NCBI GenBank assembly: GCA_965243425.1
Contig: OZ251550.1
Span: forward strand, 446,579-510,578
DNA length: 64,000 nt
Direction: 5' to 3'
DNA from: Nitrospirales bacterium
GTDB taxonomy: Bacteria > Nitrospirota > Nitrospiria > Nitrospirales > UBA8639
The notes beneath the pieces are model-generated. The model did no database searches and was not told the origin of the DNA. It saw only the letters and a list, made by a program, of their open reading frames with translations. A program made the position numbers and the translations under genes. Of this stretch, positions 3,403 to 47,209 are shown in pieces (within the stretch, counting starts at the first letter, position 1; each line of letters begins with the position of its first letter).

Positions 3403-4610
3403 TGAACGCCGTCATTGCTCAGGATCAAACCGTGGTGCTGGGAGCCATCCTGGTGGCGGCGGCGTTCGTGGGTCTCCGGAGCGAACGGTACGCGTGGGGA
3501 GCCGCGTTGTCGGGTGCCGTCGTCACCATGCTGACCACGGTCGTCCTGTCAAACGTCGGCGTCCTGCCTTCCGCGGCGCCCGTCTACGACCTCGTGTGGA
3601 CCTATCTCGTTCCCGTGGCGATCCCGCTGTTGTTGTTGAAGGCCAATCTCTTTCGAATCGTGCGCGAAGCCGGCCCCACCCTGGTGGCCTTTGCGTTCGG
3701 CACCATCGGGACGGTGGTCGGCGTCCTCATCGCGTTTCACCTGATTCCGACGGGAGAGGAAGGCTGGAAACTGGCCGCGATTTTTGCCGCGACGTACATC
3801 GGCGGGTCCGTGAACTACGTGTCCACGGCAGAAGTCGTAGACATGCGTTCCGGCGACCTCCTCGCCGCCGGGGCCGCGGCGGATAATTTAACGATGACGA
3901 TCTATTTCCTCGTCCTGTTTGCGTTGGCGTCGATGAGATTCTTGCAGCAGACGTTTGCCACCGTGCCAACCCCCGCGTCCCCCGCGCCCACACGGGCACG
4001 TCCAAGCCACGTAGGGCCGCATCTCATGCGGCCATCCCCGCCCGCCGGGTCACAAACACGGCGCTCCGGCTTTTTGGGAGAATGGAGGCAACTGACGTTC
4101 ACGTCAACAAGTGTGGCCCTCCTGTTCGCCGTCGCGTGTTGCGTGACCGGGTACCGAGCGGCAGCGTGGCTGGGAACGCCGAGCAGCGGCATTCTGTTCG
4201 TCACGGCCCTGGTCGTGCTGGCCGCGACGACGTGCGGGCCTCAGCTTGATCGCCTGAGCGGAGCCGAAACCATCGGGATAGTCTTCATGCAAATCTTTTT
4301 TGCCACGATCGGCGCAACGGCAAACGTTGGCGTCGTGCTGACGGTAGGGCCTTGGCTCTTCGTGTACGCCGTCGTCATTGTCAGCGTCCATCTGGTCATC
4401 ATTCTGACGCTGGGGAAGATCGCCGGACTCAGCCTGCCCGATATTCTCGTCGCCTCCAATGCCAACATGGGCGGCCCGACCACCGCGGCCGCCATGGCGG
4501 CAGCCCGCCGGTGGGATGCCTTAGTCGTCCCCGCGATCGTATGCGGGACGCTCGGGTACGCCGTGGCGACGTTTCTGGGCGTGCTGATCGGAAGCGCGTT
4601 ACAAACGTGA
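3402..4610 (+). CDS. DUF819 family integral membrane protein
   Basis: Polytopic membrane ORF. The N-terminal region (VYDLVWTYLVPVAIPLLLLKANLFRI) and C-terminal region (NANMGGPTTAAAMAAARRW) match what I recall of DUF819. The ATG at 3402 overlaps the preceding stop by 1 nt. Confidence 0.7.
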   Translation: MNAVIAQDQTVVLGAILVAAAFVGLRSERYAWGAALSGAVVTMLTTVVLSNVGVLPSAAPVYDLVWTYLVPVAIPLLLLKANLFRIVREAGPTLVAFAFGTIGTVVGVLIAFHLIPTGEEGWKLAAIFAATYIGGSVNYVSTAEVVDMRSGDLLAAGAAADNLTMTIYFLVLFALASMRFLQQTFATVPTPASPAPTRARPSHVGPHLMRPSPPAGSQTRRSGFLGEWRQLTFTSTSVALLFAVACCVTGYRAAAWLGTPSSGILFVTALVVLAATTCGPQLDRLSGAETIGIVFMQIFFATIGATANVGVVLTVGPWLFVYAVVIVSVHLVIILTLGKIAGLSLPDILVASNANMGGPTTAAAMAAARRWDALVVPAIVCGTLGYAVATFLGVLIGSALQT

Positions 4611-4744
4611 CGGCGGGAACGCCACGGGCACGATCAGAAATTTCCATTTTCACGCGCAGTGGTGTACGATGATTTTCACAATGACACGTTTTTCTACGAA
4701 CGGCACGTTCCCATTACTCATAATCCTATGACAGGAGGCACACA

Positions 4745-5827
4745 ATGACCGGCAACACGAACACGCAGGACCGCCCGGGCGTCATCAACGATCTTCACCC
4801 TCGACGGACGCTGATTCTGGGACTCCTGCTGATGAGTCTGACCGCTCAGACCGCAATGGCCCAAACCCAGACGGCATTTCCGCTTCATCTCCCATCAGGC
4901 CTGGAACACGAGAAACTCGTGATCCCCGAGGATAACCCGCTCACCAAAGAAAAAGTGGAACTGGGAAAACTCCTGTTTTTTGATACACGGTTATCGGCCA
5001 ATGATACGATTGCCTGCGCAAGCTGCCACCTACCGGCCCTGGCCTTTACCGACGGGCAACCCGTTTCCACCGGCATTCATCAACAACGGGGGGGACGAAA
5101 TGCGCCGACCGCCGTCAATCGCGTCTTCAGCACGGCCCAATTCTGGGACGGCCGGGCCGCCACGCTCGAAGACCAATCCGTGGGCCCTTTCGTCAACCCC
5201 GTGGAGCACGGGTTTGCCGACCACGACGCCCTGGTGGCGAAAGTCAAGACGATTGCCGGCTACCACCCCCTCTTTGAACGCGCGTTCGGACCCGTTCCCA
5301 TCACGCTCGACCTGATCGGCAAAGCCATTGCCAGCTTTCAACGCACCCTGCTGTCCGGGAACAGCGCGTACGATCGATTCGTCGTGGAAGACGACGCGCA
5401 GGCGTTATCCGAAACGGCCCAAAACGGATTCCGCGTGTTCGTCGGAAAAGGGCGGTGTTTACACTGCCACTCCGGGTTCAATTTTACGAACGAGCGGTTT
5501 CATAATCTTGGCGTGGGATGGGATGACGAGCAACGCGACGTCGGCCGCTACGCCGTGACGAACAACGCTGAAGACCTCGGCGCGTTCAAAACGCCGACGC
5601 TGCGGGAAATCGCCCGAACCGCCCCGTACATGCACGACGGCAGCTTGGCGACCTTACAGCAGGTCATTGAGTTCTACGATCAGGGGGGCATCCCGAATCC
5701 GCATCTGGATTCCGCGGTCCAACCGTTGAATCTCACGGACCAGGAGAAGAAGGATTTACTTGAATTTCTCCATGCCTTGAACGGAGAAGGCTGGGAGGTC
5801 ACGCCGCCGACCGATTTCCCGAAGTAA
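4745..5827 (+). CDS. Di-haem cytochrome c peroxidase (CCP/MauG family)
   Basis: Signal-like N-terminus, two CxxCH motifs (CASCH, CLHCH), and the family blocks GRNAPT, FWDGRA, FKTPTLREI and PYMHDGS. Confidence 0.9.
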   Translation: MTGNTNTQDRPGVINDLHPRRTLILGLLLMSLTAQTAMAQTQTAFPLHLPSGLEHEKLVIPEDNPLTKEKVELGKLLFFDTRLSANDTIACASCHLPALAFTDGQPVSTGIHQQRGGRNAPTAVNRVFSTAQFWDGRAATLEDQSVGPFVNPVEHGFADHDALVAKVKTIAGYHPLFERAFGPVPITLDLIGKAIASFQRTLLSGNSAYDRFVVEDDAQALSETAQNGFRVFVGKGRCLHCHSGFNFTNERFHNLGVGWDDEQRDVGRYAVTNNAEDLGAFKTPTLREIARTAPYMHDGSLATLQQVIEFYDQGGIPNPHLDSAVQPLNLTDQEKKDLLEFLHALNGEGWEVTPPTDFPK

Positions 5828-5869
5828 CGGCACGGCGAGGGTTCGGGGGAACAAGCCGGCGCGTCAAGG

Positions 5870-6745
5870 TTATTTTTCAAACGCGCCGCTGAACCGTCCC
5901 TGGTACACTTCGGCCACCGGACCCGTCATCGTCAGGTTGTAGTGCGCGTCGACCGTGACGTGCAGCGTTCCGCCTGGGGCCACGACCGTGACCGGGCTGG
6001 TGACCAATTTCAAGCGCACGCCCGCGCAGGCCACCGCGCAGGCCGACGAACCCGACGCCTGCGTCTCTCCCACGCCGCGTTCCCAGATGAACGTGGAAAT
6101 GGTCTGCGGGCCAATGGGCACGGCCAGTTGCACGTTGGTGCGTTTTGGAAAGGTCGGATGGACTTCTAATTCGGGCCCCATGCGGAGCAGATCCTCCCGC
6201 GTCCAGGTCCCGCCCGCGGGCTTCAACAACACGCAATGGGGGTTGCCCACGCTGACGCCCGTAAAGCGCAAGGACTGCCCCACGGCTTTGATGGGTTGGC
6301 GGAGCAACTCCGGCGCCTTAATGGTACAGGGCAAATCACTCGGCCGAAACGAGGCCCGGCCCATCTCCACGGTCGCACCGTTGACCCGCCCCTTGCGATC
6401 AAACGCCAACGTCACGTGAACGACCCCGCCTTTCGTTTCAACGGAAAACGAACGGCGCCGCGTCCGTTTCGTGGCATAGAGGAAACAGCCGAAAATCCGC
6501 AACCCGTTGCCTGATTTTTCGGCTTCACTCCCGTCCGGGTTGAAAATGCGTAATCCGAAGTCCGCTTTTCTTGAAGGAACCAGGGCAACGATGCCGTCGC
6601 TGCCCACGCCCCAATGTCGATCACAGATCGCACGAATGGCTTTGGGGGTCAGCCGAAACGTCAACTGCCTGGGTTCAAGAGCAATGTAATCATTGCCCAG
6701 CCCGTGGCCTTTGAAAAACGAATTGAGGGTGGGTGATTTTTTCAT
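5870..6745 (-). CDS. dapF: Diaminopimelate epimerase
   Basis: 291 aa with an N-terminal FFKGHGLGNDYIAL block, GNPHCV, and a second catalytic-Cys region (ASGSSACAVA). Confidence 0.88.
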   Translation of the reverse strand: MKKSPTLNSFFKGHGLGNDYIALEPRQLTFRLTPKAIRAICDRHWGVGSDGIVALVPSRKADFGLRIFNPDGSEAEKSGNGLRIFGCFLYATKRTRRRSFSVETKGGVVHVTLAFDRKGRVNGATVEMGRASFRPSDLPCTIKAPELLRQPIKAVGQSLRFTGVSVGNPHCVLLKPAGGTWTREDLLRMGPELEVHPTFPKRTNVQLAVPIGPQTISTFIWERGVGETQASGSSACAVACAGVRLKLVTSPVTVVAPGGTLHVTVDAHYNLTMTGPVAEVYQGRFSGAFEK

Positions 6746-6900
6746 AACGTTAGACGCAAATGTACACGGAACGCCGTGCCGCGGTCAAAGGTCCGGACGG
6801 CTCCGGTCGTCACACTTTCCCGGTCGGGCATGATTGTGCTACATCCTTTCCCCACGTGGGTCTCCGCGAAGAGCAGAAGCCCGGGAGACGGAACGCAACG

Positions 6901-9720
6901 ATGAACCCGCACGACCAGGATTCGACTCATCACCACCTCTGTCTGGTGGATGGGTCCGGCTTCATCTTTCGAGCGTTCCACGCGCTGCCGGTGCTGACCC
7001 GACCCGACCGGACTCCCGTCAACGCCGTGCTCGGGTTCAGCAACATGTTGCTGAAACTGCTGGACGATCTGCAAGCCACGCATCTGGCCGTCATTTTCGA
7101 TTCGGCGCGGGAGTCGTTTCGGAATGAACTGGCTCCCGACTATAAGGCCAATCGCCCCGACCCGCCCGACGAACTCATTCCCCAATTTCCCCTGATTCGA
7201 GAGGCCACGCGCGCGTTCAACGTGGAATGTCTCGAAACGCCGGGCTTTGAAGCCGATGACCTGATCGCCACCTACGCACGACAAGCCGAAGCCGCGGGGA
7301 TGGACGTCAGCATCGTGTCCTCGGATAAAGATCTGATGCAGTTGGTTTCTGATCGAATCAGCATGTTCGACGCCATTAAAAATCGGAAAATCGGTCGAGC
7401 GGAAGTCAAGGAAAAATTCGGGGTGGGTCCCGAAAAAGTGGTGGACGTCCAAGCCCTGGCCGGCGATTCGACGGACAACGTGCCGGGAGTTCCGGGGATT
7501 GGGGTCAAAACCGCGGCCCTCCTCATTCACGAATACGGGGACCTGGATGCACTCCTGTCCCGAGCCGGAACAATCAAGCAACCGAAGCGACGGCAAAGCC
7601 TCATTGATTTTGCCGATCAAGCCAGACTCTCGCGGACCCTCGTTCGTTTACGAGACGACGTCCCCACGGACCTGACCGTGAACCAGTTACGACGACGAGA
7701 CCCTGATCCCCAGCGACTGCTGACCTTCCTCAATGAACAAGGATTCAAATCCCTCATGGCCAAAATCCAAAGCCGGATGGCGGCGTCCGGTGGGGACGGT
7801 CCGCAGACCGAAGGCGTCCCGACGCCTGATGGGCCGACCGCCACGCATTACGAACTGGTGCAATCCCACGCGGTCTTGCAGGATTGGATCACGCAAGCCC
7901 GGTACGGAGGCGTGGTGGCGATCAAAACCGAAACCACGTTGACGGACGAAAACCGGGCCGAACCGGTGGGACTGGCTCTGTGCGTGAGGCCCGGCCGTGC
8001 GTGCTACGTTCCCTTCGCCCATCGCCTGCCGGCCCCGGCGTCCGAATCGGATGACGCCGCTGAACCGGAGCACGCCGCTCACCCATGCGCACCGCTCGTC
8101 CAGATTCCCCTCGAAGAGGCACTCGATCTCCTACGGCCGCTCTTCGCCGACCCCGCGGTGCTCAAAATCGGTCATCACCTCAAAGACGACGTGGTGGTAC
8201 TGCAACGGTACGGCGTCACCCTCTCACCGGCGGACGACACCATGCTGATGTCCTACGTCCTTGACGGCGGCAGCCACGGCCACGGCCTGGATGAATTAGC
8301 CGAACGCCATTTCGGCCACGCGACGGTCACGTTCAAAGACGTCACCGGCACGGGTAAATCACACCGCACCTTCGACCTGGTCCCCCCGGAGGAAGCCCTG
8401 GCCTACGCCGCCGAAAACGCCGACGTGATCGTCCGGTTGCATCAGTTCCTCAAACCGCGCTTGCTGGCGGAACGAATGGTCACGACGTATGAGACGCTCG
8501 AACGGCCCCTTCTTGCCGTCCTGGCCGACGTGGAGGCCGCGGGCATCCGCGTTGACCGGGAGAAACTGGAGTCGCTCAGCCGAGAATTTGCAGCACGCCA
8601 AGCCACCCTGGAGCACGACGTGTACGACCTGGCCGGTCACACGTTCAACGTGGGGTCGCCCAAGCAACTGGGCGAAGTCCTGTTCGACGAAATGCGCCTG
8701 GAAGGCGGACAGAAGGGAAAATCCGGGGCCTATTCAACCGGCGCCGACGTCCTGGAAACCCTGGCGGCCGAGGGGCACGCACTCCCGGCAAAAGTCCTGG
8801 ACTGGCGACAACTCGACAAATTAAAACGCACGTATGCCGATGCCCTGGTTGAGCAGATCGACGCGCAAACCGGGCGAGTCCACACGTCCTTCGCCATGGC
8901 GGCGACCTCAACGGGCCGCCTGTCTTCGATTGATCCCAATCTGCAAAATATTCCCATTCGAACCGAAGACGGTCGAAAAATCCGGCACGCCTTCGTGGCC
9001 GAACCCGGCCGGCGTCTGCTGTCGCTGGACTACTCGCAAATAGAACTCCGTCTGCTCGCCCACGTGGCCGACGTCGGGACGCTCAAACAAGCGTTTCACG
9101 AAGGCCAGGACGTTCACGCCCTGACCGCCGGTCAACTGTTCGGCGTGGCCCCGGACGAGGTGGACCCGACCATGCGCCGGAAAGCCAAGGCCATCAACTT
9201 CGGCATCATCTACGGCATCAGCGCCTTCGGACTCGGGCGTCAATTAGGGATGACCAACGACGAAGCCGCGGCGTACATGCAAGCCTATTTTGCACGATAC
9301 CCGGGCATTCCGGAATACATGGACCGCACCAAACGATTCTGCCGCGAACGCGGATACGTGGAGACGCTCTTCGGTCGCCGATGCCACGTGCCGGGCATCC
9401 ACGACAAAAACGCCGTCCTTCGCAATTTTTCCGAACGGGCGGCCATCAATGCCCCGATCCAAGGCACGGCCGCCGACGTGTTGAAACGCGCCATGATTCG
9501 CGTCCCGCCGGCCCTGGCACGCCACCACCTCAAAGCAAAAGCCACCATGCTGTTGACGGTTCACGACGAATTGCTCTTTGAAGCGGACGCAGACGCCGTA
9601 GATCAGACGGCCGAAGTTGTCAAGCACGTCATGGAATCAGCCACCCTCCCCGCCCTCCAACTCTCCGTCCCCCTCACCGTAGACGTAAGACAAGGAACCT
9701 CCTGGGGAGAAGCCCATTAA
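6901..9720 (+). CDS. polA: DNA polymerase I
   Basis: 5'-3' exonuclease N-terminus (LVDGSGFIFRAFHAL), a 3'-5' exonuclease region, and polymerase motifs DYSQIELRLLAH, RRKAKAINFGIIYG and LTVHDELLFE. Start chosen at the ATG at 6901; the ORF opens at 6760. Confidence 0.95.
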   Translation: MNPHDQDSTHHHLCLVDGSGFIFRAFHALPVLTRPDRTPVNAVLGFSNMLLKLLDDLQATHLAVIFDSARESFRNELAPDYKANRPDPPDELIPQFPLIREATRAFNVECLETPGFEADDLIATYARQAEAAGMDVSIVSSDKDLMQLVSDRISMFDAIKNRKIGRAEVKEKFGVGPEKVVDVQALAGDSTDNVPGVPGIGVKTAALLIHEYGDLDALLSRAGTIKQPKRRQSLIDFADQARLSRTLVRLRDDVPTDLTVNQLRRRDPDPQRLLTFLNEQGFKSLMAKIQSRMAASGGDGPQTEGVPTPDGPTATHYELVQSHAVLQDWITQARYGGVVAIKTETTLTDENRAEPVGLALCVRPGRACYVPFAHRLPAPASESDDAAEPEHAAHPCAPLVQIPLEEALDLLRPLFADPAVLKIGHHLKDDVVVLQRYGVTLSPADDTMLMSYVLDGGSHGHGLDELAERHFGHATVTFKDVTGTGKSHRTFDLVPPEEALAYAAENADVIVRLHQFLKPRLLAERMVTTYETLERPLLAVLADVEAAGIRVDREKLESLSREFAARQATLEHDVYDLAGHTFNVGSPKQLGEVLFDEMRLEGGQKGKSGAYSTGADVLETLAAEGHALPAKVLDWRQLDKLKRTYADALVEQIDAQTGRVHTSFAMAATSTGRLSSIDPNLQNIPIRTEDGRKIRHAFVAEPGRRLLSLDYSQIELRLLAHVADVGTLKQAFHEGQDVHALTAGQLFGVAPDEVDPTMRRKAKAINFGIIYGISAFGLGRQLGMTNDEAAAYMQAYFARYPGIPEYMDRTKRFCRERGYVETLFGRRCHVPGIHDKNAVLRNFSERAAINAPIQGTAADVLKRAMIRVPPALARHHLKAKATMLLTVHDELLFEADADAVDQTAEVVKHVMESATLPALQLSVPLTVDVRQGTSWGEAH

Positions 9721-38227: not shown

Positions 38228-38892
38228 CGCCCGGCATTCTCCCCGAAGCCGTGCGGTTGGTGATTTTTGATTTTGACGGCACCCTCATCGATTCCAAGCA
38301 TGACATTGCCACGTCCGTCAATCTCACGCTCAGCGACTTGGCGTTGCCCACGCGGGCACCCGAAGAAATTTTTACCTTCGTCGGCGACGGGGTCAAGCGG
38401 TTGTTGCGCTCAGCCGTCGGGGAAGAAAATGACGCACGCTATGAAGAGTCCCTGCGCATCTTCCGACGGCATTATTTGTCCCATTGTCTGGATACCACGC
38501 AACTCTACCCGGGACTTGAACGCCTCTTCGGCCGCCTGACGGAGACACAGCTCAAAGCCCTGGCCACCAATAAATCGTTGGAATACACCTTACGAATCGT
38601 CGAAGGCTTGAAGGTCCAAGAGCAGTTTGCCTCCATCGAAGGCCCGTTGGACCAGACGGACTTGAAACCCGACCCGGGCATGGTGTTACGCACGCTGAAC
38701 AAACTCGCCGTTCACCCGGAAGAAGCCCTGTTCGTCGGAGACAGTACCAACGACGTCCGCGCCGCCCAAGCCGCCGGCATCTCTTCCTGCGCCATCGGCT
38801 ACGGCTACGGCACCCGAGAAAAAGTCCTGGCCTTGCACCCTGATTATTACTGCGAAAGCCCGACCGATCTCGTTTCGTTTTTGGTGGGGTAG
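38224..38892 (+). CDS. HAD-superfamily hydrolase (phosphoglycolate phosphatase-like)
   Basis: HAD motif I (VIFDFDGTLIDS), motif II (ATNKS), and motifs III/IV (FVGDSTNDVRAAQAAG). Confidence 0.85.
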   Translation: MTPGILPEAVRLVIFDFDGTLIDSKHDIATSVNLTLSDLALPTRAPEEIFTFVGDGVKRLLRSAVGEENDARYEESLRIFRRHYLSHCLDTTQLYPGLERLFGRLTETQLKALATNKSLEYTLRIVEGLKVQEQFASIEGPLDQTDLKPDPGMVLRTLNKLAVHPEEALFVGDSTNDVRAAQAAGISSCAIGYGYGTREKVLALHPDYYCESPTDLVSFLVG

Positions 38893-39009
38893 GGTCCCTT
38901 TATCAAACATCGAACGATTCAACCACATTTCTTCTCTCTTTGGATCCCTAAGGATCGATCACTTTCTTAAAAGAGTCACGGTGTTTGAGCGGTTTGAGTG
39001 AGTACCACC

Positions 39010-40551
39010 TCATCCCTTCGACCGGAAGGTGCGACTCGACCGGACGGCAATATTGGAGGAACCAATCTCATGAGCGTGCGACAGGATGGCCTCAATCATT
39101 TCTTTTGCGGCGTGTGGTGATTGCGATACCTCCGCCAAGGTTTGAAAAATCTTTCTATAGGTCGATATCTCAGAATCCGTGATATTTCTGAACATCGGCC
39201 GGCTCGTCCTAGGTTTGAAATTGTCCAATTTCGTCCCCATCACCTCTAGTTGCTCAAGATCATCTTTCGTGTGGCCATTTTTTGGATCGAGGGTCTCATC
39301 GCGGATATCCCGAAGATGTTTCAACGCCTGTCTGACCATAGCTTTCGCATCTTGAGGGAATAGATATCCAGAAACCGCAAGATCATAGGTTTCCTCCATT
39401 TGGCGTAGTGTAGACAGAAACTTCCGCTTTTTGTTGCGCATCGCCGATGCCTTCCGGCATCGAGTCACTACTCTACGGATAACGGCGGCAAGCTGGTTTT
39501 CAAGATTTCGCGTGTGCGGCCCAGGTTCAAAGTAATCGCGTCGTCCGTTCGGGACGATACGTGGGTCCACAACGTGAATCTCACCGACGCACCAGCGGTT
39601 GAATCTTTCATCTTGAAAGAGGCGATCGAAAACGGCCTCACTGCCTATCTGGATGTTTCCTACACGTGCTCGAACACCCCGAATCCCAGCCTCTTTTGGT
39701 ATCGCGCCGAAGTATGATGAATGGGCAACCCAGCCAACGGCAGCACGTTCGCTCTTGTCTGCAGAAGGAATGCCGATTTCTTCGAATTCTCTGAAGCAGT
39801 CCTCTCGGTCCTGCGACAATCGAATCATCTCGCCATATCGTCGCGTGATGGGCAGGCGTTCGCCAGCAAAGATGATCTCTAGCGCCAATGGTGACTCATT
39901 CGCTCCGAAGAGGTTTTCGATGTCTGACGCGAATGGAAATATCGGAGACATCGGAACGGGACAAACTTCCCCGATGTACGTTCGGACGGCTTCCCGGTTA
40001 AGTATCAGCCCCGCAGCGTGCCGCCCGACACCACCGACTTCAACCTCGAAGAAATGGGCGGGATAGTCCAAGCCAGCCACGGTCTCAACTCTGACGCACT
40101 CACGAATCGCGCGTTCTATCTTTCCAGTCTCAGTAATGCACTTGCGGAGTTTGGAGCCATTCCAGACGATACGGGTGGCAGGACGTTCACTTTCGGCACG
40201 TGTTAAGAACGTCACGGATTCAGCGAAAGCGAGTCCCGACAAACGTCCAATTCCGCGAAACCCTCTATCGGTTTTTCGTCGCTTTCGGCTCCTGGCGATG
40301 GGTAGCAATTCCCTGACCGCTGCCTCGTATGACAACCCAGGCCCGTTATCTCGAATCTTCACGCGCAACCCGGACGGGTCAATGTCAACCTCGATCTTCC
40401 CGTTCACTGCGTCACCGGCGGAGACGATTGCGTCCGCCGCATTCTGGATATACTCACGATAGATGGCCAGTGGATTGTCGTACAGACCGACAGTGATGAG
40501 GTTGAATAAGTCGCCGCCTACCAACGATTCCGGTGCGTCTGCGTTCGGCAT
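39010..40551 (-). CDS. GHKL-superfamily ATPase (Hsp90/MORC-like, HATPase_c_3 type)
   Basis: Bergerat-fold boxes: N box EYIQNAADA, G1 box DNGPGL, G2 box GFRGIGRLSG. 513 aa with a large uncharacterised C-terminal half. Last gene of the six-gene operon. Confidence 0.8.
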   Translation of the reverse strand: MPNADAPESLVGGDLFNLITVGLYDNPLAIYREYIQNAADAIVSAGDAVNGKIEVDIDPSGLRVKIRDNGPGLSYEAAVRELLPIARSRKRRKTDRGFRGIGRLSGLAFAESVTFLTRAESERPATRIVWNGSKLRKCITETGKIERAIRECVRVETVAGLDYPAHFFEVEVGGVGRHAAGLILNREAVRTYIGEVCPVPMSPIFPFASDIENLFGANESPLALEIIFAGERLPITRRYGEMIRLSQDREDCFREFEEIGIPSADKSERAAVGWVAHSSYFGAIPKEAGIRGVRARVGNIQIGSEAVFDRLFQDERFNRWCVGEIHVVDPRIVPNGRRDYFEPGPHTRNLENQLAAVIRRVVTRCRKASAMRNKKRKFLSTLRQMEETYDLAVSGYLFPQDAKAMVRQALKHLRDIRDETLDPKNGHTKDDLEQLEVMGTKLDNFKPRTSRPMFRNITDSEISTYRKIFQTLAEVSQSPHAAKEMIEAILSHAHEIGSSNIAVRSSRTFRSKG

Positions 40552-40572
40552 TTCATTCCCCAGGAATACTGG

Positions 40573-42270
40573 TCAGTCCGCCGTCTTCACTCGGCGATGG
40601 TCATCCTGTTCCAGTACGTGTTCATGGTCGAACAGGCCGGCATCTTCAACGGTCTCAGACTGTTCAGGCATACTGAGGTCTGAATCGAACGTGAGCAACC
40701 GTGGCAAATCGGATATGCCGTCGGCTATCGGCCCGTCCTTGATATCCAGGGTGTGAAACCGCAGAACTCGTCTGATAAGCGGATCAATCCCGCGGTCTTT
40801 GGCCAACCGCTGGTAATAGTCACGCCGGAGCTCCGTCGCTTCCGTAGGTCCAGACAGAAGATGGATCAATTCCCGTTCTTGACGTTCCGAGAAACGGCGA
40901 CATAACGCCATGTATTCGTCACGGACCGGCTGTCCTGCATCCTTCTCGTAGTAATCACGGTGAAAAATGAAGGCATGAGGAAGACTCAATAATCGCTCGA
41001 ACGCTCGACGGTCCTCACCGTAGGCCCGCATGAAGAAGGACTGGTTGCCACTGACAATACCACGAGTGGCTTGTAGCATGATCTGAAACGAACGGAGGAA
41101 ATACCGGTTCCAGCGGTCCCCAACATGCGACCTGTCTTTGAGGGTGAGGGGTTGATACCGCATCGGGAACGACCAAATACGGATTCCCAATTCCTCATTC
41201 ATGCGAATATTGAGCCGCATCCGTTCATACAAATCAGCCGGAGTGTCCATAAAATTGTATAGCAAGTAGTTAGACAAGGCCGTAATACCATGATCACACG
41301 CCATACGGACAGAGGCTTCATAGACCGTCCTGAGACCGATATGGTCAAACGCGATCCTCAACGGGTTGATGCAGATGGTCGACATCTCGCGCAAAAACAT
41401 CGGGGTCTTGGCGAGAATACGGGCATCGACTCCCTGGTTGAAATCAACCCGACGCTTGATGGGCTGCCTGCCATTGCGGCCGAGTTTCGCCCCTGCGGTG
41501 AACCCAAGGTCACGGATTTCGGCCATCACTTCCTTGAACCGTGCGGAGGCGGTAATGTTGTTATCCATCAGCACGAGGTCCTTTTTCGTCCCATGTGCGA
41601 CATTGATTCCGTTGACGAGCCTCGCCAGGGGGGGCATTTCCCGCTGCGCCCCTTCCAGTTTCGGCACGCCACAGAACGCACATTGTCTGACGCAGCCCCG
41701 CGAGGCGTAGCCGAAATACGCATCATGCACGGGATAGCGGTAGTCAATCTGGTCAAGAATCCCGTAATCCGGCACCCGTTCTTCAATCGGCATGCCGCCC
41801 AGGTCTTCAGCGCCGAAATCCCCATCGGCCGCTGATAAGTCCAGTGCCAACGCTGGTGGGCGGTCCAGCAGGCCCTTGATAAAGCGAACGCCCGCCCATC
41901 GCGGCTCTTTCACGAACTCCTCATACATCAGTGAGGCAGCGATGCCACCAACAAAGACCCGTTCCGATTGGTTGCCCGCCGCCCGAATAGCGAAGTCGAT
42001 CGCTGTCGCCGTCCGTGCCCATTCGAAGCTGAACAGCGTCGTCACGTAGACACGGTCCCACGCTTGCTCCAATACCGCAGGCGTTGCACCCTTCACGAAC
42101 ATCACACGGTCACCCCGACCACAGGGGCCGTGATACGCAGCCAGTTTCATCAGGCCAAGCGGTGGGTACTTATTCGGATATCCTGGTTCGATCAGCAGGA
42201 TGTTTTTCGGATTCATGGGGTTGCTTGTTACTTTAGTAAGCGTAGAAATTTTATCCGTTGCAAATTTCAT
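40573..42270 (-). CDS. Radical SAM protein with B12-binding-like N-terminal domain and long C-terminal extension
   Basis: CX3CX2C cluster motif in YASRGCVRQCAFCGV. N-terminal NILLIEPGYPNKYPPLGLMKLAAY is typical of the Rossmann-like domain of class-B-type radical SAM enzymes. 565 aa; an alternative start is at 42216. Confidence 0.8.
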   Translation of the reverse strand: MKFATDKISTLTKVTSNPMNPKNILLIEPGYPNKYPPLGLMKLAAYHGPCGRGDRVMFVKGATPAVLEQAWDRVYVTTLFSFEWARTATAIDFAIRAAGNQSERVFVGGIAASLMYEEFVKEPRWAGVRFIKGLLDRPPALALDLSAADGDFGAEDLGGMPIEERVPDYGILDQIDYRYPVHDAYFGYASRGCVRQCAFCGVPKLEGAQREMPPLARLVNGINVAHGTKKDLVLMDNNITASARFKEVMAEIRDLGFTAGAKLGRNGRQPIKRRVDFNQGVDARILAKTPMFLREMSTICINPLRIAFDHIGLRTVYEASVRMACDHGITALSNYLLYNFMDTPADLYERMRLNIRMNEELGIRIWSFPMRYQPLTLKDRSHVGDRWNRYFLRSFQIMLQATRGIVSGNQSFFMRAYGEDRRAFERLLSLPHAFIFHRDYYEKDAGQPVRDEYMALCRRFSERQERELIHLLSGPTEATELRRDYYQRLAKDRGIDPLIRRVLRFHTLDIKDGPIADGISDLPRLLTFDSDLSMPEQSETVEDAGLFDHEHVLEQDDHRRVKTAD

Positions 42271-42305
42271 TTAGCCAAATGCTGTCGGTAGTATTTTGAA
42301 CTGAC

Positions 42306-43319
42306 TCATCCATCTTTGATCTTCTTAATCATGTCATTGATACGCTGAACGGTTCTGTTTAATTTGCGAACTTCCTGATCCAATGAATTCAATGCATTGT
42401 TATCTAGCTGTTTAAGCTCTTTTTCCGTAATATCACTTAAACGTTGATGTGCCTGTTTGACTCTCTCATGTGCGCCACTGATCTTCGCATCTTGATAGCC
42501 TTCGTCAAGAGTCACCGTACCGTTAATGTACTTTTTCAGCACTTTCGGTTTGGAAATAATCGTCGGCAACTTATCCCGAAGATTTGGTGCAGTAAATTCA
42601 ACTTCACTATCCTCATGACCAAGTTCCTTGATTTTCTTTAAAAGAAAATCTCGCAATTCGATATTGTCAGTTATCGACGCAGATATCTGCCGATTTCGCA
42701 CAAGCACATCGTAATAGGCGAAATGGGATATGTTGTCATTATCTCCGTTTTCGTGCATCTTGGAAATAATTTCGACCCTTTTTTTGATCTCGAGTTCCGT
42801 TTCGCCAAATGTCTTTGCAATATTTTCAATGCTAATTTTGCGGTGGAATCGTACAAAAGCAAAATTGGCCTTCTCGTAAGCAGACCACTGTGTTTTGCCT
42901 TTGACATGAATCTGATTTAGGAAAGCTCCTTGTTGCTCATCTGTCAGACTGCTTACTATGTCACAAGGAATAAGTTCCCATTCCCCCTCAGCCTTCTCCT
43001 GCTGCAGTTGTCGATAAACGGCTAATCGAGAATTACCTTCTATGACTTCTTTGGTGTCGTGGCGAACTAATATCGGCTCCATAAGACCGCCATGCCGTTT
43101 TATTTCTGGCTTCAAATTCTTAACACTCGCCTCTTCCAGGAGCTTTCTAAATATTTTGTCTTGTTGTTCTTCATCGGTTAGGTCATCGAAATCGGGTTCA
43201 CCATGCGTACAGGCATATACTCTCGGGTTATCTTTCAGGAACTTGAGATCATTTATTTCGAGGTAGTCATTAGTCAGCGGAATGGTTTCACCAAGAATTT
43301 TCATATCTTTCTCTTTCAT
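42306..43319 (-). CDS. ParB/Srx N-terminal-domain protein, paralogue 2
   Basis: ATG at 43319 preceded by GGAGGATCACAAAAC. Core EPILVRHDTKEVIEGNSRLAVYRQL, then WSAYEKANFAF and a long coiled-coil-like tail. Same architecture as 45226..46260. Confidence 0.75.
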   Translation of the reverse strand: MKEKDMKILGETIPLTNDYLEINDLKFLKDNPRVYACTHGEPDFDDLTDEEQQDKIFRKLLEEASVKNLKPEIKRHGGLMEPILVRHDTKEVIEGNSRLAVYRQLQQEKAEGEWELIPCDIVSSLTDEQQGAFLNQIHVKGKTQWSAYEKANFAFVRFHRKISIENIAKTFGETELEIKKRVEIISKMHENGDNDNISHFAYYDVLVRNRQISASITDNIELRDFLLKKIKELGHEDSEVEFTAPNLRDKLPTIISKPKVLKKYINGTVTLDEGYQDAKISGAHERVKQAHQRLSDITEKELKQLDNNALNSLDQEVRKLNRTVQRINDMIKKIKDG

Positions 43320-43344
43320 GTTTTGTGATCCTCCATAACAAATA

Positions 43345-44811
43345 TTAGGAATGTCCAGGAGGTGAGAGTATTTGTGCCAACGCCCCAGACAGATCACACG
43401 TAAACGTCACGTCAAACTCATCGCGCAACATATCGCCTTGCGTTAGCTGAGCGGCTTGATATTTGGCATTCAGTAACATGTCCACCCACTCATCAATGGT
43501 GTCTCTAGCGATTAGATTATGTACGAAACACTCTACGGTTTGTGAAATTCGATGGATGCGATCCTGTGCTTGAAGATAGTCATCAAGGCTGAATCCGCGG
43601 TCATAGAATATTGCGTGATTCGCAATAGTTAAGGTCAATCCTTCTTTTGCTGCGCCTGGAGTGGCTAACAAAATTCTGCAACCATTATCCGTCTTGAATT
43701 TTCTAATTGATTCGTTTCGATCAGAAACGGACATAGAGCCATGCACCATCTGCGGCATGAATTGATTTAGTTTTTTGTTCAACCATTCGACATTGTTGAC
43801 AAATCCGGTCCATATAATTGCTTTGTTCGACTGAAGATCAATATCACCAAATAACTCAACAAGCTTTGGATATTTTCCAGGAAGCTCATTATAGGTTTCA
43901 TCCACAAGAACAGGATTCGATGCGCATTGCACCAAGCGCAACAGACGTTTCAAAATGTCTTCTGCGTCATCAATGACAAAACCGTCGACGCCATCCAACT
44001 CGTAAGCCATTTCGTCTCTGTAAGCAGCATATATTGCAGATTGGTGAGGTGCCAGTTCGACAAAATGAGTTAGAATGGTTTTATCAGGAAGTTCGATACC
44101 TGCAGTGCGCTTCGTATCGCGTACCGAGAAATGCTTGATCCTGCCCATAACATCAGCTAACCGCATGCCATACTCAGACACCGAGACAGATTTAAGTGGC
44201 AAATCAAGTGCCGTTTTGAATTCGGCAAACGAATCACCAAGCGATTTACCATCATCGAGAAACTTGATCTGTGACCAGATGTCATAGGGGCGATTAGCCA
44301 CGGGAGTTCCGGTCATGATGATACGACGCACGAATCTATCAGCGAGAGAATGAAAGCAGACCGATAGCTTTGATTCTGGATTCTTAATCTTCTGACTTTC
44401 GTCCAGGATTGCTCCCACTTGGCAGGTACCAAGGAACTCACGTATGAGATCAAGGTTTGTCGATACAATTTCGTAGTTCATGATGTAAACCAGGACTGGC
44501 GAGTTCAAGGCAATGCTGTTTTCTCGACGGTTATCTGACAGAATTCTAGGCGTGACATGCGAGTGTGACACCAGTTCATCAAACCAATTTTGAACCAGCG
44601 TCTTTTTGGTGATAACGAACACGGTATCGACGACATCTTCACTTAGCCACAACAACATCAGATCAATCGCGATTTTTGTCTTGCCCAGTCCCTGTTCATG
44701 AAATATTGCAGCGTGAGGCAAAGATTTCACTGCCCTGACAGCATCAAGCTGATATGGGTAGGCATCATGTTTGGCGTTCAGCATAGGGGGTTTTCTTAGC
44801 TTAAATGCCAT
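43345..44811 (-). CDS. SNF2-family (SF2) helicase/translocase, minimal 488-aa form
   Basis: Motif I EQGLGKT, motif II ILDESQKIKN, motif III IMTGTPVAN, and motif VI QAQDRIHRISQ in a Helicase_C-like half. Confidence 0.88.
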   Translation of the reverse strand: MAFKLRKPPMLNAKHDAYPYQLDAVRAVKSLPHAAIFHEQGLGKTKIAIDLMLLWLSEDVVDTVFVITKKTLVQNWFDELVSHSHVTPRILSDNRRENSIALNSPVLVYIMNYEIVSTNLDLIREFLGTCQVGAILDESQKIKNPESKLSVCFHSLADRFVRRIIMTGTPVANRPYDIWSQIKFLDDGKSLGDSFAEFKTALDLPLKSVSVSEYGMRLADVMGRIKHFSVRDTKRTAGIELPDKTILTHFVELAPHQSAIYAAYRDEMAYELDGVDGFVIDDAEDILKRLLRLVQCASNPVLVDETYNELPGKYPKLVELFGDIDLQSNKAIIWTGFVNNVEWLNKKLNQFMPQMVHGSMSVSDRNESIRKFKTDNGCRILLATPGAAKEGLTLTIANHAIFYDRGFSLDDYLQAQDRIHRISQTVECFVHNLIARDTIDEWVDMLLNAKYQAAQLTQGDMLRDEFDVTFTCDLSGALAQILSPPGHS

Positions 44812-45245
44812 ATTCTACCGCCATTTGAGTCCAGCAACCAAAAGTCGCAGCCGTCGAAGACTGCAATGGTTGTACTTGTTACATTCGTAACTTGACGTGC
44901 AAAACGCAATAAGGTTTTGGCGCGATTCGCTCCATAGCCGGTTACTGAGAGAACGAAGAAACCATTCCTTCTTCGCTCAAGATAGTTGATAAAAGAGATT
45001 ACTTGTTTGTTGGTGTGTTTGTTGTCAAGGTCGCCATCAGTTTTGGCTTCAGCAATGACAATAGAACTCTCTGACTCTCCGGTGGCATACACATCCGGAC
45101 GGAATCCATCAACTACTGGAGGCACTGGGTCGCCGGGATTCTGTTGCACGTCAGTAATGAACGACATTAATGGACACCGTGCCTCAAGCACTTTCACTAC
45201 CTGAATTACCAAATTCCTATGCTGTTCACTCTGAGACATCTTCAA
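44796..45245 (-). CDS. PD-(D/E)xK-type nuclease-fold protein (149 aa)
   Basis: RPDVYA ... SSIVIAEAKT gives a D...ExK arrangement on predicted strands. It overlaps both neighbours (20 nt and 16 nt). Confidence 0.55.
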   Translation of the reverse strand: MKMSQSEQHRNLVIQVVKVLEARCPLMSFITDVQQNPGDPVPPVVDGFRPDVYATGESESSIVIAEAKTDGDLDNKHTNKQVISFINYLERRRNGFFVLSVTGYGANRAKTLLRFARQVTNVTSTTIAVFDGCDFWLLDSNGGRIWHLS

Positions 45246-46260
45246 GCAGCCCTTGCAGACGTGCTGACAAATCCTCCAGGGTGTTTATCTGCTCCGCAAC
45301 CTCGTTGCGTTCCTTGTTTTTTAGTGCCCGCACCTCAGAATAAGGCAAATCATTGATGCGCCGTGCAAGAACTTCTGCTAGCTGATATATAGATGCGGTT
45401 TCCAGCGTAATTTTGCGGCTTGTTTGACCGAGATCTTTTTGTGCTTGTTGGTCAAGTAGTCTGGTGGCCGCTTCTATGGAACGAGGGCCTCCGGTAAGGA
45501 ATGTTCTTTTAGCTTCTTCGTTACGAAGAACTTTGGGTAACTGGCGTACATCTTCCAACCGGTATATTTTTCCGTCACGAATCCATTCCCCAAAGTCTTT
45601 CAGGTCTAAATCAGCCTCGAATATGGCATCCTTGATCCTTGATTTCTGCAATTCAACAAAACCGCTAAACCTCTCGATTTTAAACGCCGGGTCATCAACC
45701 ACATCACGATAATATTCATTCATGTCATGATAAGCATCAATCTGACGCTCTATGTTAGTTTTGTTGCCACCACAGAGTGCTATCATTTCGTCGTAACTCA
45801 TGAACTTGCTGTTACGTAGATAATGAAGATATCTTGCCTTTTCGTAGGCAGGCCATTCTCTGGCACCAACTAGGTGAGCCGACACACGAATTGTCTCAAT
45901 GTCGCGTTGGTCAGCATCGGCTAAAACTACTGCTTTGATCTCAGACCAAGTTCCTTCTATGGCATCTCTAAGAAATTCTTTATAGATAGCAAGCCGGGTA
46001 TTTCCATCAATGCAAACATATCCGACGTCTTTATTTATAACGGTAATCGGGGACATCACCCCACCACTGGCGCGGATTGAATCTCTAAGAGAAAAATAAG
46101 AGGAAGTACCCGCTACCCCATCTTGAGCCGAACGCAAGGCGAAGTGAATATGCTTAGCATTTGGCTGATCTCCATACTTCTCCAACGCCTTTTTTATTCT
46201 AGGGTTATCAGTGTCGAAGGAAACCGAATTGACGTTCAGCATTGTGTGTTTTTCTACCAT
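45226..46260 (-). CDS. ParB/Srx N-terminal-domain protein, paralogue 1
   Basis: DTDNPRI ... SPITVINKDVGYVCIDGNTRLAIYKEF ... REWPAYEKARYLHYL. 344 aa; first gene of the operon. Confidence 0.75.
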   Translation of the reverse strand: MVEKHTMLNVNSVSFDTDNPRIKKALEKYGDQPNAKHIHFALRSAQDGVAGTSSYFSLRDSIRASGGVMSPITVINKDVGYVCIDGNTRLAIYKEFLRDAIEGTWSEIKAVVLADADQRDIETIRVSAHLVGAREWPAYEKARYLHYLRNSKFMSYDEMIALCGGNKTNIERQIDAYHDMNEYYRDVVDDPAFKIERFSGFVELQKSRIKDAIFEADLDLKDFGEWIRDGKIYRLEDVRQLPKVLRNEEAKRTFLTGGPRSIEAATRLLDQQAQKDLGQTSRKITLETASIYQLAEVLARRINDLPYSEVRALKNKERNEVAEQINTLEDLSARLQGLLEDVSE

Positions 46261-46266
46261 TTTCTT

Positions 46267-46271
46267 CTCCT
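46267..46271 (-). promoter_or_regulatory. Shine-Dalgarno (AGGAG) for the first gene of the six-gene operon
   Basis: The minus strand reads CAGGAGAAGAAAATG, with AGGAG 6 nt upstream of the ATG at 46260. Confidence 0.5.
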
Positions 46272-46708
46272 GAAATACGCATACTATAATTTATGGTCCT
46301 TGACTTCGCCCTTTTGACAGTACTCTTCCTGCTTCAGAAATTATCGAACGTGATCCGTGTGTTCTCTCAATACACAAATAGAAGCCGTCATCGAAAGTTT
46401 TTAGGCGATGGGTTAAATGCTTACGTCGCTTGACCGGATTCGCCTTCAACATCGGTCGTACTCTAACCTCCCTTACAGCAAGACACCACGGCACTTCACC
46501 TACTTGTCCTGCACGCACACCACCATACCGACTCGTATCCGTATGGTAACGGTCAACTTGGTATCCCGCAACATTTTGAGATAAGTTCCCCACAACTGAT
46601 CCGTTCCGTTCTGTTCAAATGGTTTGAGAAGGGAGTAGACTGGTTTTGGTGTAAAATTTGTGTCAGGATTGTTGGCCGTTGATCGTGCAAGTATAGGAGG
46701 GATAGACG

Positions 46709-47209
46709 ATGGAAATCGGAAGGCGAACCGTGTTGAAAATCGGAGTCGTGGCGGGAGTGGGCATGATGGTGAATCCCCTGGGCCTCCTGTCTGCCGGGGC
46801 CAGGGAAGAGACGGAATGGGGGAAGATCGTGAAAACGAATGAAGAGTGGAAAGCGATTTTGACGCCGGAACAATATCGCGTGCTTCGGGAAGAAGGGACC
46901 GAGCCGCCCTTCCACAATGCGTATCATCAACACAAGGCGGCGGGCACATATCATTGTGCGGGGTGTGATTTGGCGCTGTTTTCGTCCGAAGCCAAGTATG
47001 ACAGCAAGACGGGGTGGCCGAGTTTTTACGAGCCGCTCTCACCTACCGTGATCGGCCGGAAAACGGATTGGCATTTGTTTTATCCCCGAACCGAGGTTCA
47101 TTGTGTACGGTGCGGCGGACATCAGGGCCACGTGTTTAATGACGGGCCGCCACCGACCGGCCTGCGGTATTGTATCAATTCCGCGGCGCTTGAATTTCGG
47201 CCGGCGTAG
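46709..47209 (+). CDS. msrB: Peptide-methionine (R)-S-oxide reductase MsrB with Tat-like signal
   Basis: N-terminal RRTVLKIGVVAGVG, then a SelR domain (YHCAGCDLALF, KTGWPSF, VHCVRCGGHQGHVFNDGP, RYCINSAAL). Confidence 0.9.
   Translation: MEIGRRTVLKIGVVAGVGMMVNPLGLLSAGAREETEWGKIVKTNEEWKAILTPEQYRVLREEGTEPPFHNAYHQHKAAGTYHCAGCDLALFSSEAKYDSKTGWPSFYEPLSPTVIGRKTDWHLFYPRTEVHCVRCGGHQGHVFNDGPPPTGLRYCINSAALEFRPA

Follow-up and report, generated by a model that had tools for sequence, protein, structure and literature searches.

What could a radical S-adenosylmethionine (SAM) enzyme and an ATPase of the GHKL type be doing as immediate neighbours in a bacterial genome? This question is raised by a locus of a Nitrospirales bacterium (GenBank assembly GCA_965243425.1), situated in a stretch of 64,000 nucleotides (nt) of contig OZ251550.1 (positions 446,579 to 510,578), which is called here the window and whose numbering is used for all positions. 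A preliminary description, made from the letters of this DNA, had presented the two genes as a pair, had noted that no characterised pair of this type was known, and had leaned towards DNA, RNA or a nucleotide as the substrate and towards a restriction-type or defence role. Its coordinates for both open reading frames (ORFs), their minus-strand location and the gap of 21 nt between them hold. The two genes do not stand alone, however: they are the 3' end of an operon of six ORFs, a context that was not mentioned then. These ORFs, all on the minus strand, run tightly packed or overlapping from position 46260 down to 39010, and encode in 5' to 3' order a ParB-like protein (ParB1), a PD-(D/E)xK-like protein, a SNF2 helicase, a second ParB-like protein (ParB2), the radical SAM protein and the GHKL ATPase. 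No curated Pfam or NCBIfam family, PADLOC model or paper covering the pair was found, and it is apparently uncharacterised. The context of ParB/DndB-like, SNF2 and nuclease-type partners points in the same direction as the earlier lean: the locus very probably belongs to a mobile, DNA-directed conflict system. Within this broader statement, the pair could plausibly, if tentatively, be regarded as the DNA-modification module of a mobile restriction-modification-like defence system, analogous to dndBCD or dpdAB.

The adjacency of the two genes goes far beyond chance. The comparison comprised 239 loci from genomes, metagenomes and IMG/VR contigs, among which L001-L080 represent the closest species-representative genomes. 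The pair does recur elsewhere, a point on which the preliminary description had made its proposal depend: the GHKL gene lies immediately downstream of the radical SAM gene in 79 of the 80 genome loci and, when the radical SAM protein is at least 50% identical to that of the window, it is adjacent in 124 of the 129 loci whose contig leaves space for it, and four of the five exceptions are artefacts of ORF calling. At 35–50% identity the adjacency is found in 8 of 12 loci, with the GHKL gene upstream in six, and below 35% in 2 of 47, these last loci representing a different family of short phage proteins. In relatives at 30–43% identity the two genes remain neighbours, in reversed order. In the soil clade, a 4-nt overlap between the stop codon of the radical SAM gene and the start codon of the GHKL gene is frequent. 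The pairwise distances of the two proteins are strongly correlated (r=0.91), as are those of SNF2 with ParB1 and ParB2 (r=0.96), whereas the correlation between radical SAM protein and SNF2 is weak (r=0.59, Spearman 0.18). Because of this difference, the radical SAM–GHKL pair and the ParB–SNF2 cassette are, judging from the distances, two co-evolving modules that have been re-assorted. Among the 80 genome loci the cassette, where present, is found upstream, downstream or inverted relative to the pair. Of all components the radical SAM protein evolves most slowly (mean pairwise distance 0.31), followed by the GHKL ATPase and ParB1 (0.52 each) and by ParB2, the fastest-evolving one (0.61). Chance adjacency and a metabolic operon were considered as explanations of the pairing and rejected in view of the co-occurrence statistics and the heterogeneous flanks.

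The radical SAM gene occupies positions 40573 to 42216 of the minus strand. Its ORF reaches position 42270 and indeed has the 565 amino acids (aa) first reported; this is probably not the length of the real protein, since the homologues are uniformly about 547 aa long and start at the second methionine of the window ORF (MNPKNILL), so translation most likely begins at the ATG at 42216 and yields 547 aa. From the N- to the C-terminus, the protein comprises a B12-binding-like domain, the radical SAM core, a clade-specific helical region, a linker and an acidic tail. The CX3CX2C motif of the [4Fe-4S]/SAM cluster, already recognised in the preliminary description, reads CVRQCAFC (positions 41671 to 41694, minus strand) within the sequence RGCVRQCAFC, with its cysteines at residues 193, 197 and 200 of the 565-aa ORF and an aromatic residue before the last of them. 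Conservation was assessed in 36 relatives with 30–75% identity, in which C180 and C183 (alignment numbering) never vary and C176 hardly does (≥90% conserved). No other cysteine is conserved in these relatives, so an auxiliary cluster of the methylthiotransferase type is unlikely, and a RimO/MiaB-like methylthiotransferase was rejected as a candidate on this ground.

The assignment to the radical SAM superfamily is made through relatives. With E=0.016 and 15.8 bits, the window protein itself stays below the threshold of the Pfam family Radical_SAM (PF04055; cut-off 29.5 bits), whereas 29 of the 36 relatives match it at E≤0.01 (best 4.3e-9) and five of the 36 match the B12-binding family PF02310 (best 1.6e-8). 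Because of these matches, both the superfamily membership and the B12-like N-domain hold by transitive homology. The AlphaFold2 (AF2) model shows in addition a local Foldseek match to the B12-binding domain 8jbt (probability 0.96, 103 columns), and the N-domain contains the motif PPLGLMKLAAYH, which we take to be typical of a B12-binding domain. No fixed sequence motif marks the binding of cobalamin by class B enzymes. The "class B" label of the preliminary description stands as far as the domain layout is concerned, and covers the layout only; the protein may use cobalamin, as predicted from this N-domain. The AF2 model, built with 24 close homologues, has a predicted local distance difference test (pLDDT) value of 69, with values below 50 in the cluster loop. 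It gave in Foldseek no significant whole-chain match (none with E<0.001), only weak matches to TIM barrels and to GDGT-MAS (7tol, probability 0.69). The chemistry cannot be deduced from this model because it is too weak around the active site.

Known families are approached only at the cluster loop. In Pfam, NCBIfam and PDB-sequence searches some 50 residues of this loop are alignable, among others with RimO, MiaB, PhpK, BzaD, HpnJ, Mmp10-type and B12-radical SAM models. No curated NCBIfam family is reached: the best score, that of RimO (TIGR01125), is 20.5 bits against a cut-off of 357, the cut-offs of these families being 250–775, which places the protein outside the curated families of known function; a fall into a clade of known metabolic function had been named in the preliminary description as a result that would speak against it. 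Viperin and QueE models are absent from the NCBIfam matches at E≤1, and PADLOC returned 0 matches for the copy of the window and for that of plasmid pNL1 (see below). The conserved core extends approximately over residues 5–430 and includes an invariant hallmark motif, RVDFNQGVDAR. The last 120 residues or so are specific to the clade with at least 50% identity and consist of helices, a variable linker and then an acidic motif (E-T-VEDAGLFDHE, positions 40621 to 40656, minus strand). The acidic tail pointed out earlier is real, and its core, [IV]-E-D-x-G-[LY], is conserved in all the proteins of this clade that were inspected: E522, V524, EDAGL and H532 are invariant in alignment A1, VEDAG[LIM] occurs in 141 of 157 full-length proteins with at least 50% identity, and the remaining inspected ones have [IV]ED[AVS][GD][LY]. 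By comparison, the motif is found in 0 of 18 proteins below 50% identity, where the GHKL gene is upstream or missing. The tail may be a docking peptide for the ATPase.

The family is a large one, with at least 6935 homologues of the radical SAM protein in the database. An exhaustive search of 1.84 billion cluster representatives retrieved 1565 related clusters, of which 250 score E<1e-30. The names of the database clusters are all empty. No radical SAM–GHKL fusion was seen among the 150 representatives listed. Several relatives of about 800-825 aa (P0137, P0145, P0151, P0174 and P0194; 35–45% identical) carry C-terminal extensions of 170–300 aa, which have no Pfam match and look like a duplicated helical C-region or helical repeats.

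The second member of the pair is a protein of 513 aa (positions 39010 to 40551, minus strand), whose ATG is preceded by a Shine-Dalgarno-like stretch, GGGGAA. Its Bergerat motifs, ExxxNxxD (E33–N37–D40), DNGPG (from D68) and GFRGIGR (from G97), show at least 95% conservation across 80 orthologues and do not vary in alignment A3. The homologues carry PF13589 or PF02518, and the window protein matches HATPase_c at 1e-4. In NCBIfam the closest models are the HSP90-family PRK14083 (8.8e-12; 44 bits, cut-off 455) and HtpG PRK05218 (22 bits, cut-off 371), so that membership in a curated Hsp90/HtpG family is not reached. The AF2 model (pLDDT 77) matches TRAP1, Hsp90, GRP94 and HtpG in Foldseek over some 400 columns (E≈3e-12). 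It was first described as a MORC/Hsp90-like GHKL ATPase; the GHKL and Hsp90 parts of this name are sustained, and the MORC part is not, because the 50 best structural matches are all of the Hsp90 family, with no MORC or MutL among them. The name GHKL/Hsp90-like is therefore preferred. According to the same model, the C-terminal 300 aa, previously left as unrecognised, would correspond to an Hsp90-type middle domain with an invariant arginine cluster, followed by long helices (residues ~345–500) that appear specific to this family. The protein is best described, from its modelled fold, as an Hsp90-like GHKL ATPase with N-terminal and middle domains, not demonstrably a MORC. It resembles Hsp90, HtpG and TRAP1 in the fold of these two domains and in its intact Bergerat motifs, and differs from them in its low sequence identity (12–17%), in its helical C-terminus and in the location of its gene in a mobile DNA-related operon. 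PADLOC gave only weak, generic GHKL matches (TmtA and REase_II, at 1e-3).

The four upstream genes of the operon are consistent with a DNA-handling function. ParB1 is a ParB/DndB-superfamily protein of 344 aa (positions 45226 to 46260, minus strand). Its (D)GNTR motif is at least 95% conserved in 57 orthologues, it has a weak PADLOC match to PDC-M38A (2.5e-7), and its gene accompanies the radical SAM gene in 56 of the 80 genome loci. The second gene (44796 to 45245, minus strand) encodes a 149-aa protein with the motif RPDVY ... IAEAKT, in which D51 and E66-A-K68 are at least 95% conserved in 56 orthologues. As it has no Pfam, NCBIfam or PADLOC match, its assignment as a putative nuclease of the restriction-endonuclease fold relies on a motif recognised by eye; tblastn finds the gene in 33 of 80 genome loci, and the clustering of neighbours assigns it to 70 of 181 loci. 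The third gene (43345 to 44811, minus strand) encodes a SNF2-family helicase/translocase of 488 aa that matches the Pfam families SNF2-rel_dom (1.6e-26) and Helicase_C (2e-16) and the ZorD-like (5e-47) and DpdE-like (6e-33) models of PADLOC; its motifs GLGKT and DESQ are conserved and the gene is found in 55 of the 80 genome loci. ParB2, also of the ParB/DndB superfamily, has an ORF of 363 aa (42306 to 43397, minus strand), with its true start probably further in. Its match to ParB_N (E=0.0046) is below the Pfam cut-off, its EGNSRLA motif is at least 95% conserved in 57 orthologues, and its orthologue on plasmid pR132505 is annotated in RefSeq as a ParB N-terminal domain-containing protein.

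The operon lies within an island of low GC content that spans 7.8 kb (positions 38893 to 46708), bounded by two conserved host genes, a 222-aa ORF that ends at 38892 and an ORF that starts at 46709. The latter (46709-47209, plus strand, 166 aa) is presumably a methionine sulfoxide reductase B-like gene, as judged by eye from CxxC ... RYCINS, with what we take to be an N-terminal twin-arginine-like signal, MEIGRRTVLKIG. The GC content is 0.41–0.45 in the ParB-nuclease-SNF2-ParB half (42306-46260) and 0.53–0.56 in the radical SAM/GHKL half (39010-42216), against 0.57–0.58 in the host flanks; the GC content at third codon positions is 0.41–0.45 and 0.56–0.64, respectively, in the two halves. The island is a compositional mosaic, which suggests that its two modules differ in origin or in residence time. 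Among the genome loci compared, the genes flanking the island are common only to three Nitrospirales metagenome-assembled genomes (MAGs) that carry the same island (L001, L009 and L011). No tRNA, integrase, Rfam match or convincing flanking direct repeats were found at its borders, and promoter and terminator sites in the island were not above chance. The spacer 5' of the operon (46261-46708; 448 nt, AT-richer) is only partially conserved at the nucleotide level, and only in the three closest Nitrospirales genomes. The 100-aa ORF that it contains (46291–46593) shows no conservation, and no above-chance promoter was found in the spacer.

Which genes keep company with the pair? All neighbours were clustered over 181 loci, and all recurrent partners proved to be DNA-handling or nuclease proteins. 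GHKL proteins, paralogues included, occur in 164 of these loci, ParB-like proteins of the two types in 97, SNF2 in 90 and the small PD..ExK-like protein, as already indicated, in 70. A 349-aa DGQHR/DndB-family protein is encoded directly upstream of the radical SAM gene, with overlapping stop and start codons, in 36–50 loci; the DGQHR/DndB neighbours match the PADLOC model of DpdB (7e-11, 8e-18 and 1.7e-17). HerA, identified by profile against PDB 7f6d (E=4e-60), is present in 18–23 loci, and the NurA-like protein that occurs with it in 17–22. Fusions of a DndB-family domain (PF14072) with HEPN are found in 12–29 loci, and a PIN_8 protein paired with a GHKL paralogue in 8. DNA methylases are absent from the recurrent clusters, and only one was seen among 125 randomly sampled flank proteins, in which no family appears more than three times and a few transposases, integrases, RES and ArdC proteins are found.

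An alternative layout of four or five genes consists of the NurA-like protein, HerA, a GHKL paralogue, the radical SAM protein and sometimes a second GHKL (L006 5584-9996; L173, L177, L179-L188 and L206 ~3500-8000). The paralogue alongside HerA–NurA is 29% identical to the GHKL of the window, and the NurA–HerA–GHKL–radical SAM order, in which GHKL precedes the radical SAM gene, is the sole layout of distant radical SAM relatives. A tandem duplication of the radical SAM gene in L006-type loci was considered and rejected, the 565-aa protein encoded upstream being HerA by profile search. A further two-gene module, formed by a HATPase_c_3 GHKL of 550–630 aa and a protein of 312–347 aa without family match, stands beside the pair in 21–26 loci (for instance, L020 6745-9500 and 13201-16131; L038 10374-13039). 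The ParB cassettes retrievable from viral contigs adjoin, in 6 of 6 loci, a radical SAM gene of this superfamily, and the ParB–SNF2 cassette never occurs without one in these contigs. In L245 (6222-16570), a very distant radical SAM protein of 452 aa (RGCIRQCAFC), with no GHKL, directly precedes the ParB–nuclease–SNF2–ParB cassette. Two genes further downstream encode proteins of 388 aa, carrying a Peptidase_S24 domain at the C-terminus, and of 514 aa, without match; an upstream gene encodes a 523-aa protein, also without match. Finally, in a metagenomic protein of 791 aa (P0211) a DGQHR/DndB-like domain is fused N-terminally to the radical SAM protein, with E=3e-33 to the 349-aa family.

The system is widespread and mobile. 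Among 185,579 species-representative genomes there are 394 matches to the family, and the closest 80 genomes belong to at least 10 phyla, with radical SAM identities of 65–93%; the taxa include Nitrospirales, Binatia, Dehalococcoidia, Latescibacterota, Alpha- and Gammaproteobacteria, Gemmatimonadota, Acidobacteriota and Poribacteria. Many of the closest genomes are, by name, of sponge-symbiont lineages (Poribacteria, Ca. Spongiihabitans, Ca. Poriferihabitaceae). Judging the hosts by lineage name, this looks like a spread across phyla within sponge microbiomes. Relatives from soil, peat and freshwater metagenomes are 51–63% identical, and full-length homologues (about 55–57% identity) are present on plasmids, several of them conjugative, of cultured Rhizobium, Mesorhizobium, Bradyrhizobium, Agrobacterium, Roseomonas and Novosphingobium, where the RefSeq annotation of the genes of the system goes no further than 'radical SAM protein', 'DGQHR domain-containing protein' and 'ATP-binding protein'. 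Plasmid pR132505 of R. leguminosarum WSM1325 (L241, NC_012854) carries a complete seven-gene version. On pNL1 of N. aromaticivorans (L240, NC_009426 114946-125348) the order is PIN–GHKL, then DGQHR–radical SAM–GHKL, and then DGQHR–HEPN. The radical SAM genes bear the locus tags SARO_RS17525 on pNL1 and RLEG_RS34125 in WSM1325. In both plasmids the stops and starts of the DGQHR–radical SAM–GHKL triad overlap, and the triad is flanked by the pair of PIN-like protein and GHKL paralogue. The DGQHR+HEPN protein of pNL1 has 770 aa, and a gene with a reverse-transcriptase domain is located about 7 kb upstream. The system is also present on IMG/VR contigs. Conjugative plasmids, viral contigs, aberrant GC, heterogeneous flanks and high identity across phyla establish its horizontal mobility. 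Loci L199-L239 and the phage records H22-H25 (Bacteroides LoVEphage, Phocaeicola phage PV4-TP1) encode radical SAM proteins of about 290–320 aa that cover residues ~16–324 of the query, with which they are 25–30% identical, and a few of them adjoin SNF2-like helicases (L209, L219). Because they have no GHKL and stand in unrelated contexts, these short phage relatives are uninformative on the present system.

The layout described here has counterparts among known defence systems. In the Dnd phosphorothioation system, the modification module is composed of dndB (ParB-like), dndC (an Fe-S enzyme) and dndD (an ATPase), followed by dndE, and is often uncoupled from its restriction module or re-paired with varied ones (DndFGH and others), including some with HerA/FtsK (PMC10853773). 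Likewise, DGQHR, radical SAM and GHKL genes follow each other in this order in the loci analysed here, together with variable nuclease modules. The enzyme, however, is a radical SAM protein with a B12-like domain and not a PP-loop ATPase, and the ATPase is of the GHKL and not of the SMC-like type. In fact, no homologues of DndA/IscS, DndC, DndD or DndE were detected, only DndB-family domains (PF14072), and no operon protein gave a Dnd match in PADLOC. In the Dpd system, which modifies DNA with 7-deazaguanine and restricts it (DpdA/B/C and DpdD–K), a ParB-like ATPase (DpdB) assists a DNA-modifying enzyme. Here, the DGQHR partners match DpdB and the SNF2 helicase matches DpdE models, at the values given above; DpdA (TGT-like) and DpdC were not detected among the recurrent neighbours or the sampled flanks. 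The differences are that the radical SAM protein is unrelated to QueE and that Dpd involves no GHKL.

A third comparison is offered by the MORC/paraMORC systems, which combine on laterally mobile loci a GHKL protein, an SF2 helicase (including SWI2/SNF2), nucleases of the restriction-endonuclease fold and DNA methylases (Iyer, Abhiman & Aravind 2008, PMC2292703); radical SAM proteins are not mentioned in that study. The window operon resembles these systems in having a GHKL, an SF2 helicase and a nuclease-like protein, and differs from them in that the place of the methylase is taken by the radical SAM gene and the GHKL is nearest to Hsp90, not to MORC or MutL. With regard to radical SAM enzymes in immunity, the prokaryotic viperins (pVips) are defence effectors that act on nucleotides. 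The preliminary description had considered viperins the only radical SAM proteins known in defence, a statement now outdated by Ophion, a system of radical SAM, PHP and PRTase proteins reported in 2025, in which the radical SAM residues of OpnA are essential for protection (bioRxiv 10.1101/2025.09.30.679545), and the only other radical SAM defence system besides viperins that was found. The present locus shares with both the location of a radical SAM enzyme within an anti-invader locus. In contrast, those enzymes have no B12-like N-domain, GHKL partner or ParB/SNF2 context and act on free nucleotides or with PHP and PRTase, and neither gave a sequence match to the radical SAM protein of the window. 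Class B-type radical SAM proteins and MiaB/RimO share with this protein the N-terminal Rossmann/B12-like domain followed by CX3CX2C, and the cluster loop aligns. They are set apart by scores of 10–20 bits against the cut-offs of 250–775, by the lack of auxiliary cysteines in the window family and by its own RVDFNQGVDAR motif and clade-specific C-terminus. A full-text search found, within the literature covered, no description of the pair or of the operon, and the known and candidate defence systems of PADLOC-DB v2.0.0 include, within the limits of that library, no model for the radical SAM protein or specifically for its GHKL.

The favoured reading of the pair as a DNA-modification module draws on these parallels. 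Because the layout parallels the Dnd, Dpd and GHKL restriction-modification themes, the radical SAM protein would be, by analogy, the self-marking enzyme. Since it is constant while the nuclease and motor modules vary, as in Dnd/Ssp, it would represent the modification core; and, because methylases are limited to 1 of 125 flank proteins, it would fill the slot of the modification subunit. On a more tentative level, it is possible that the enzyme, guided by the ParB/DndB-like proteins and by the Hsp90-like ATP clamp, installs a novel covalent self mark on double-stranded DNA, such as a methyl or alkyl group placed on an unactivated carbon of a base or sugar, in a reaction that might depend on cobalamin. 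In the favoured reading the radical SAM enzyme would use a 5'-deoxyadenosyl radical to functionalise a C–H bond of the host DNA, for example by methylating a carbon of a base or sugar; cobalamin could be the methyl carrier. The GHKL dimer would act as an ATP-driven clamp that holds or remodels the DNA for the enzyme, whose acidic tail would dock to the ATPase, and the ParB/DndB proteins (DGQHR, DpdB-like) would load or target the complex on DNA. Interchangeable modules would then attack the DNA that lacks the mark: in the window, the SNF2 translocase with the PD-(D/E)xK-like nuclease and the two ParB-like proteins; elsewhere, HerA–NurA, a PIN-like protein with a GHKL paralogue, or DndB–HEPN.

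Several points weigh against this reading. No variable region for target recognition can be made out in the radical SAM protein, which is also the most conserved component, so that the partners would have to supply the sequence specificity. The ATPase is structurally nearer to the chaperone Hsp90 than to DNA-acting GHKLs, a resemblance that would also fit a role on a protein client. Some loci hold the pair without a recognisable nuclease module nearby (e.g., L047 and L065). For the radical SAM protein, the quality of the AF2 model is mediocre (pLDDT 69), and Foldseek gave it no significant whole-chain match. The fused protein P0211 is a single case, and could be either a Rosetta-stone fusion or a frameshift artefact between overlapping genes. 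It is also important to note that the proposed mechanism has been deduced from genes and their comparison.

Could the pair instead be the arm that senses and strikes? The Hsp90-like ATPase would then sense or clamp invader DNA or a phage protein and activate the radical SAM enzyme, which would damage or modify the nucleic acid of the invader or make a viperin-like antiviral nucleotide analogue. We regard this as unlikely, although it is the alternative that best survives. In its favour, GHKL paralogues of the same loci pair with PIN_8, with HerA–NurA or with the 312–347-aa protein, as if GHKL might be a general adaptor of effectors; nucleotide-acting radical SAM enzymes do serve as defence effectors, as exemplified by pVips and Ophion; and the loci that hold only the pair would be easily accommodated. 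Nevertheless, effector systems normally lack two or three separate nuclease or motor modules, and it is the radical SAM protein that stays constant while the nucleases vary. Furthermore, the protein has no similarity in NCBIfam to viperin or to nucleotide-modifying radical SAM families beyond the cluster loop, and the translational coupling of a DpdB/DndB-like protein to it fits a DNA-modification module.

Repair or maintenance of DNA appears quite improbable. According to this explanation, an enzyme similar to spore photoproduct lyase (SPL) would reverse a lesion with the help of a MutL-/Hsp90-like ATPase, while HerA–NurA, or SNF2 and the nuclease, would resect the DNA. HerA–NurA complexes are known in DNA end resection, SNF2 and GHKL (MutL) proteins function in repair, the associated HerA is closest to that of 7f6d, and a gene for an SOS-response-associated peptidase is found a few kb away on pNL1. 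Against this, the system is distributed patchily by horizontal transfer, with copies on plasmids and viral contigs and an aberrant GC content, the accessory modules are shuffled, the HEPN, PIN and DndB/DpdB-like partners are typical of conflict systems, and the radical SAM protein has no similarity to the SPL models of NCBIfam.

Very remote, finally, is the possibility that the enzyme serves metabolism or natural-product synthesis and has its own Hsp90-like chaperone, which would mature the enzyme or a peptide or protein client, next to an unrelated defence system. In its favour, the best structural matches of the ATPase are chaperones, the conserved C-terminal peptide of the enzyme is reminiscent of the motifs by which chaperones or co-chaperones dock, secondary metabolism employs many radical SAM enzymes with a B12 domain, and sponge symbionts are rich in natural products. 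However, no biosynthetic, transporter or precursor-peptide gene is recurrent and no family exceeds three occurrences in the 125 flank proteins, every recurrent partner is DNA-related, in many cases with translational coupling to the radical SAM gene, and the ParB–SNF2 cassette of viral contigs is always accompanied by a radical SAM gene.

What is new in this locus is a candidate modification enzyme and its ATPase partner within what would be a defence island of the modification-restriction type, whose chemistry could prove categorically new. The family is large, widespread and conspicuous in sponge-symbiont MAGs, and it has tractable cultured carriers, namely Novosphingobium aromaticivorans DSM 12444 with plasmid pNL1 and Rhizobium leguminosarum WSM1325 with plasmid pR132505. 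Even if the idea of DNA modification were wrong, the co-evolving pair with its plug-in nuclease modules would constitute an uncatalogued system of the defence type. If the idea is true, prokaryotic immunity would gain an epigenetic or self mark of a new chemical class, made by an enzyme of a new class, beside methylation, phosphorothioation and 7-deazaguanine modification. The radical SAM protein would then be the first radical SAM equivalent of a DNA methylase in cellular immunity, the system would be the dominant one of this kind in sponge-symbiont communities, and the partner of the enzyme would provide the first DNA-related role for a bacterial Hsp90-like ATPase.

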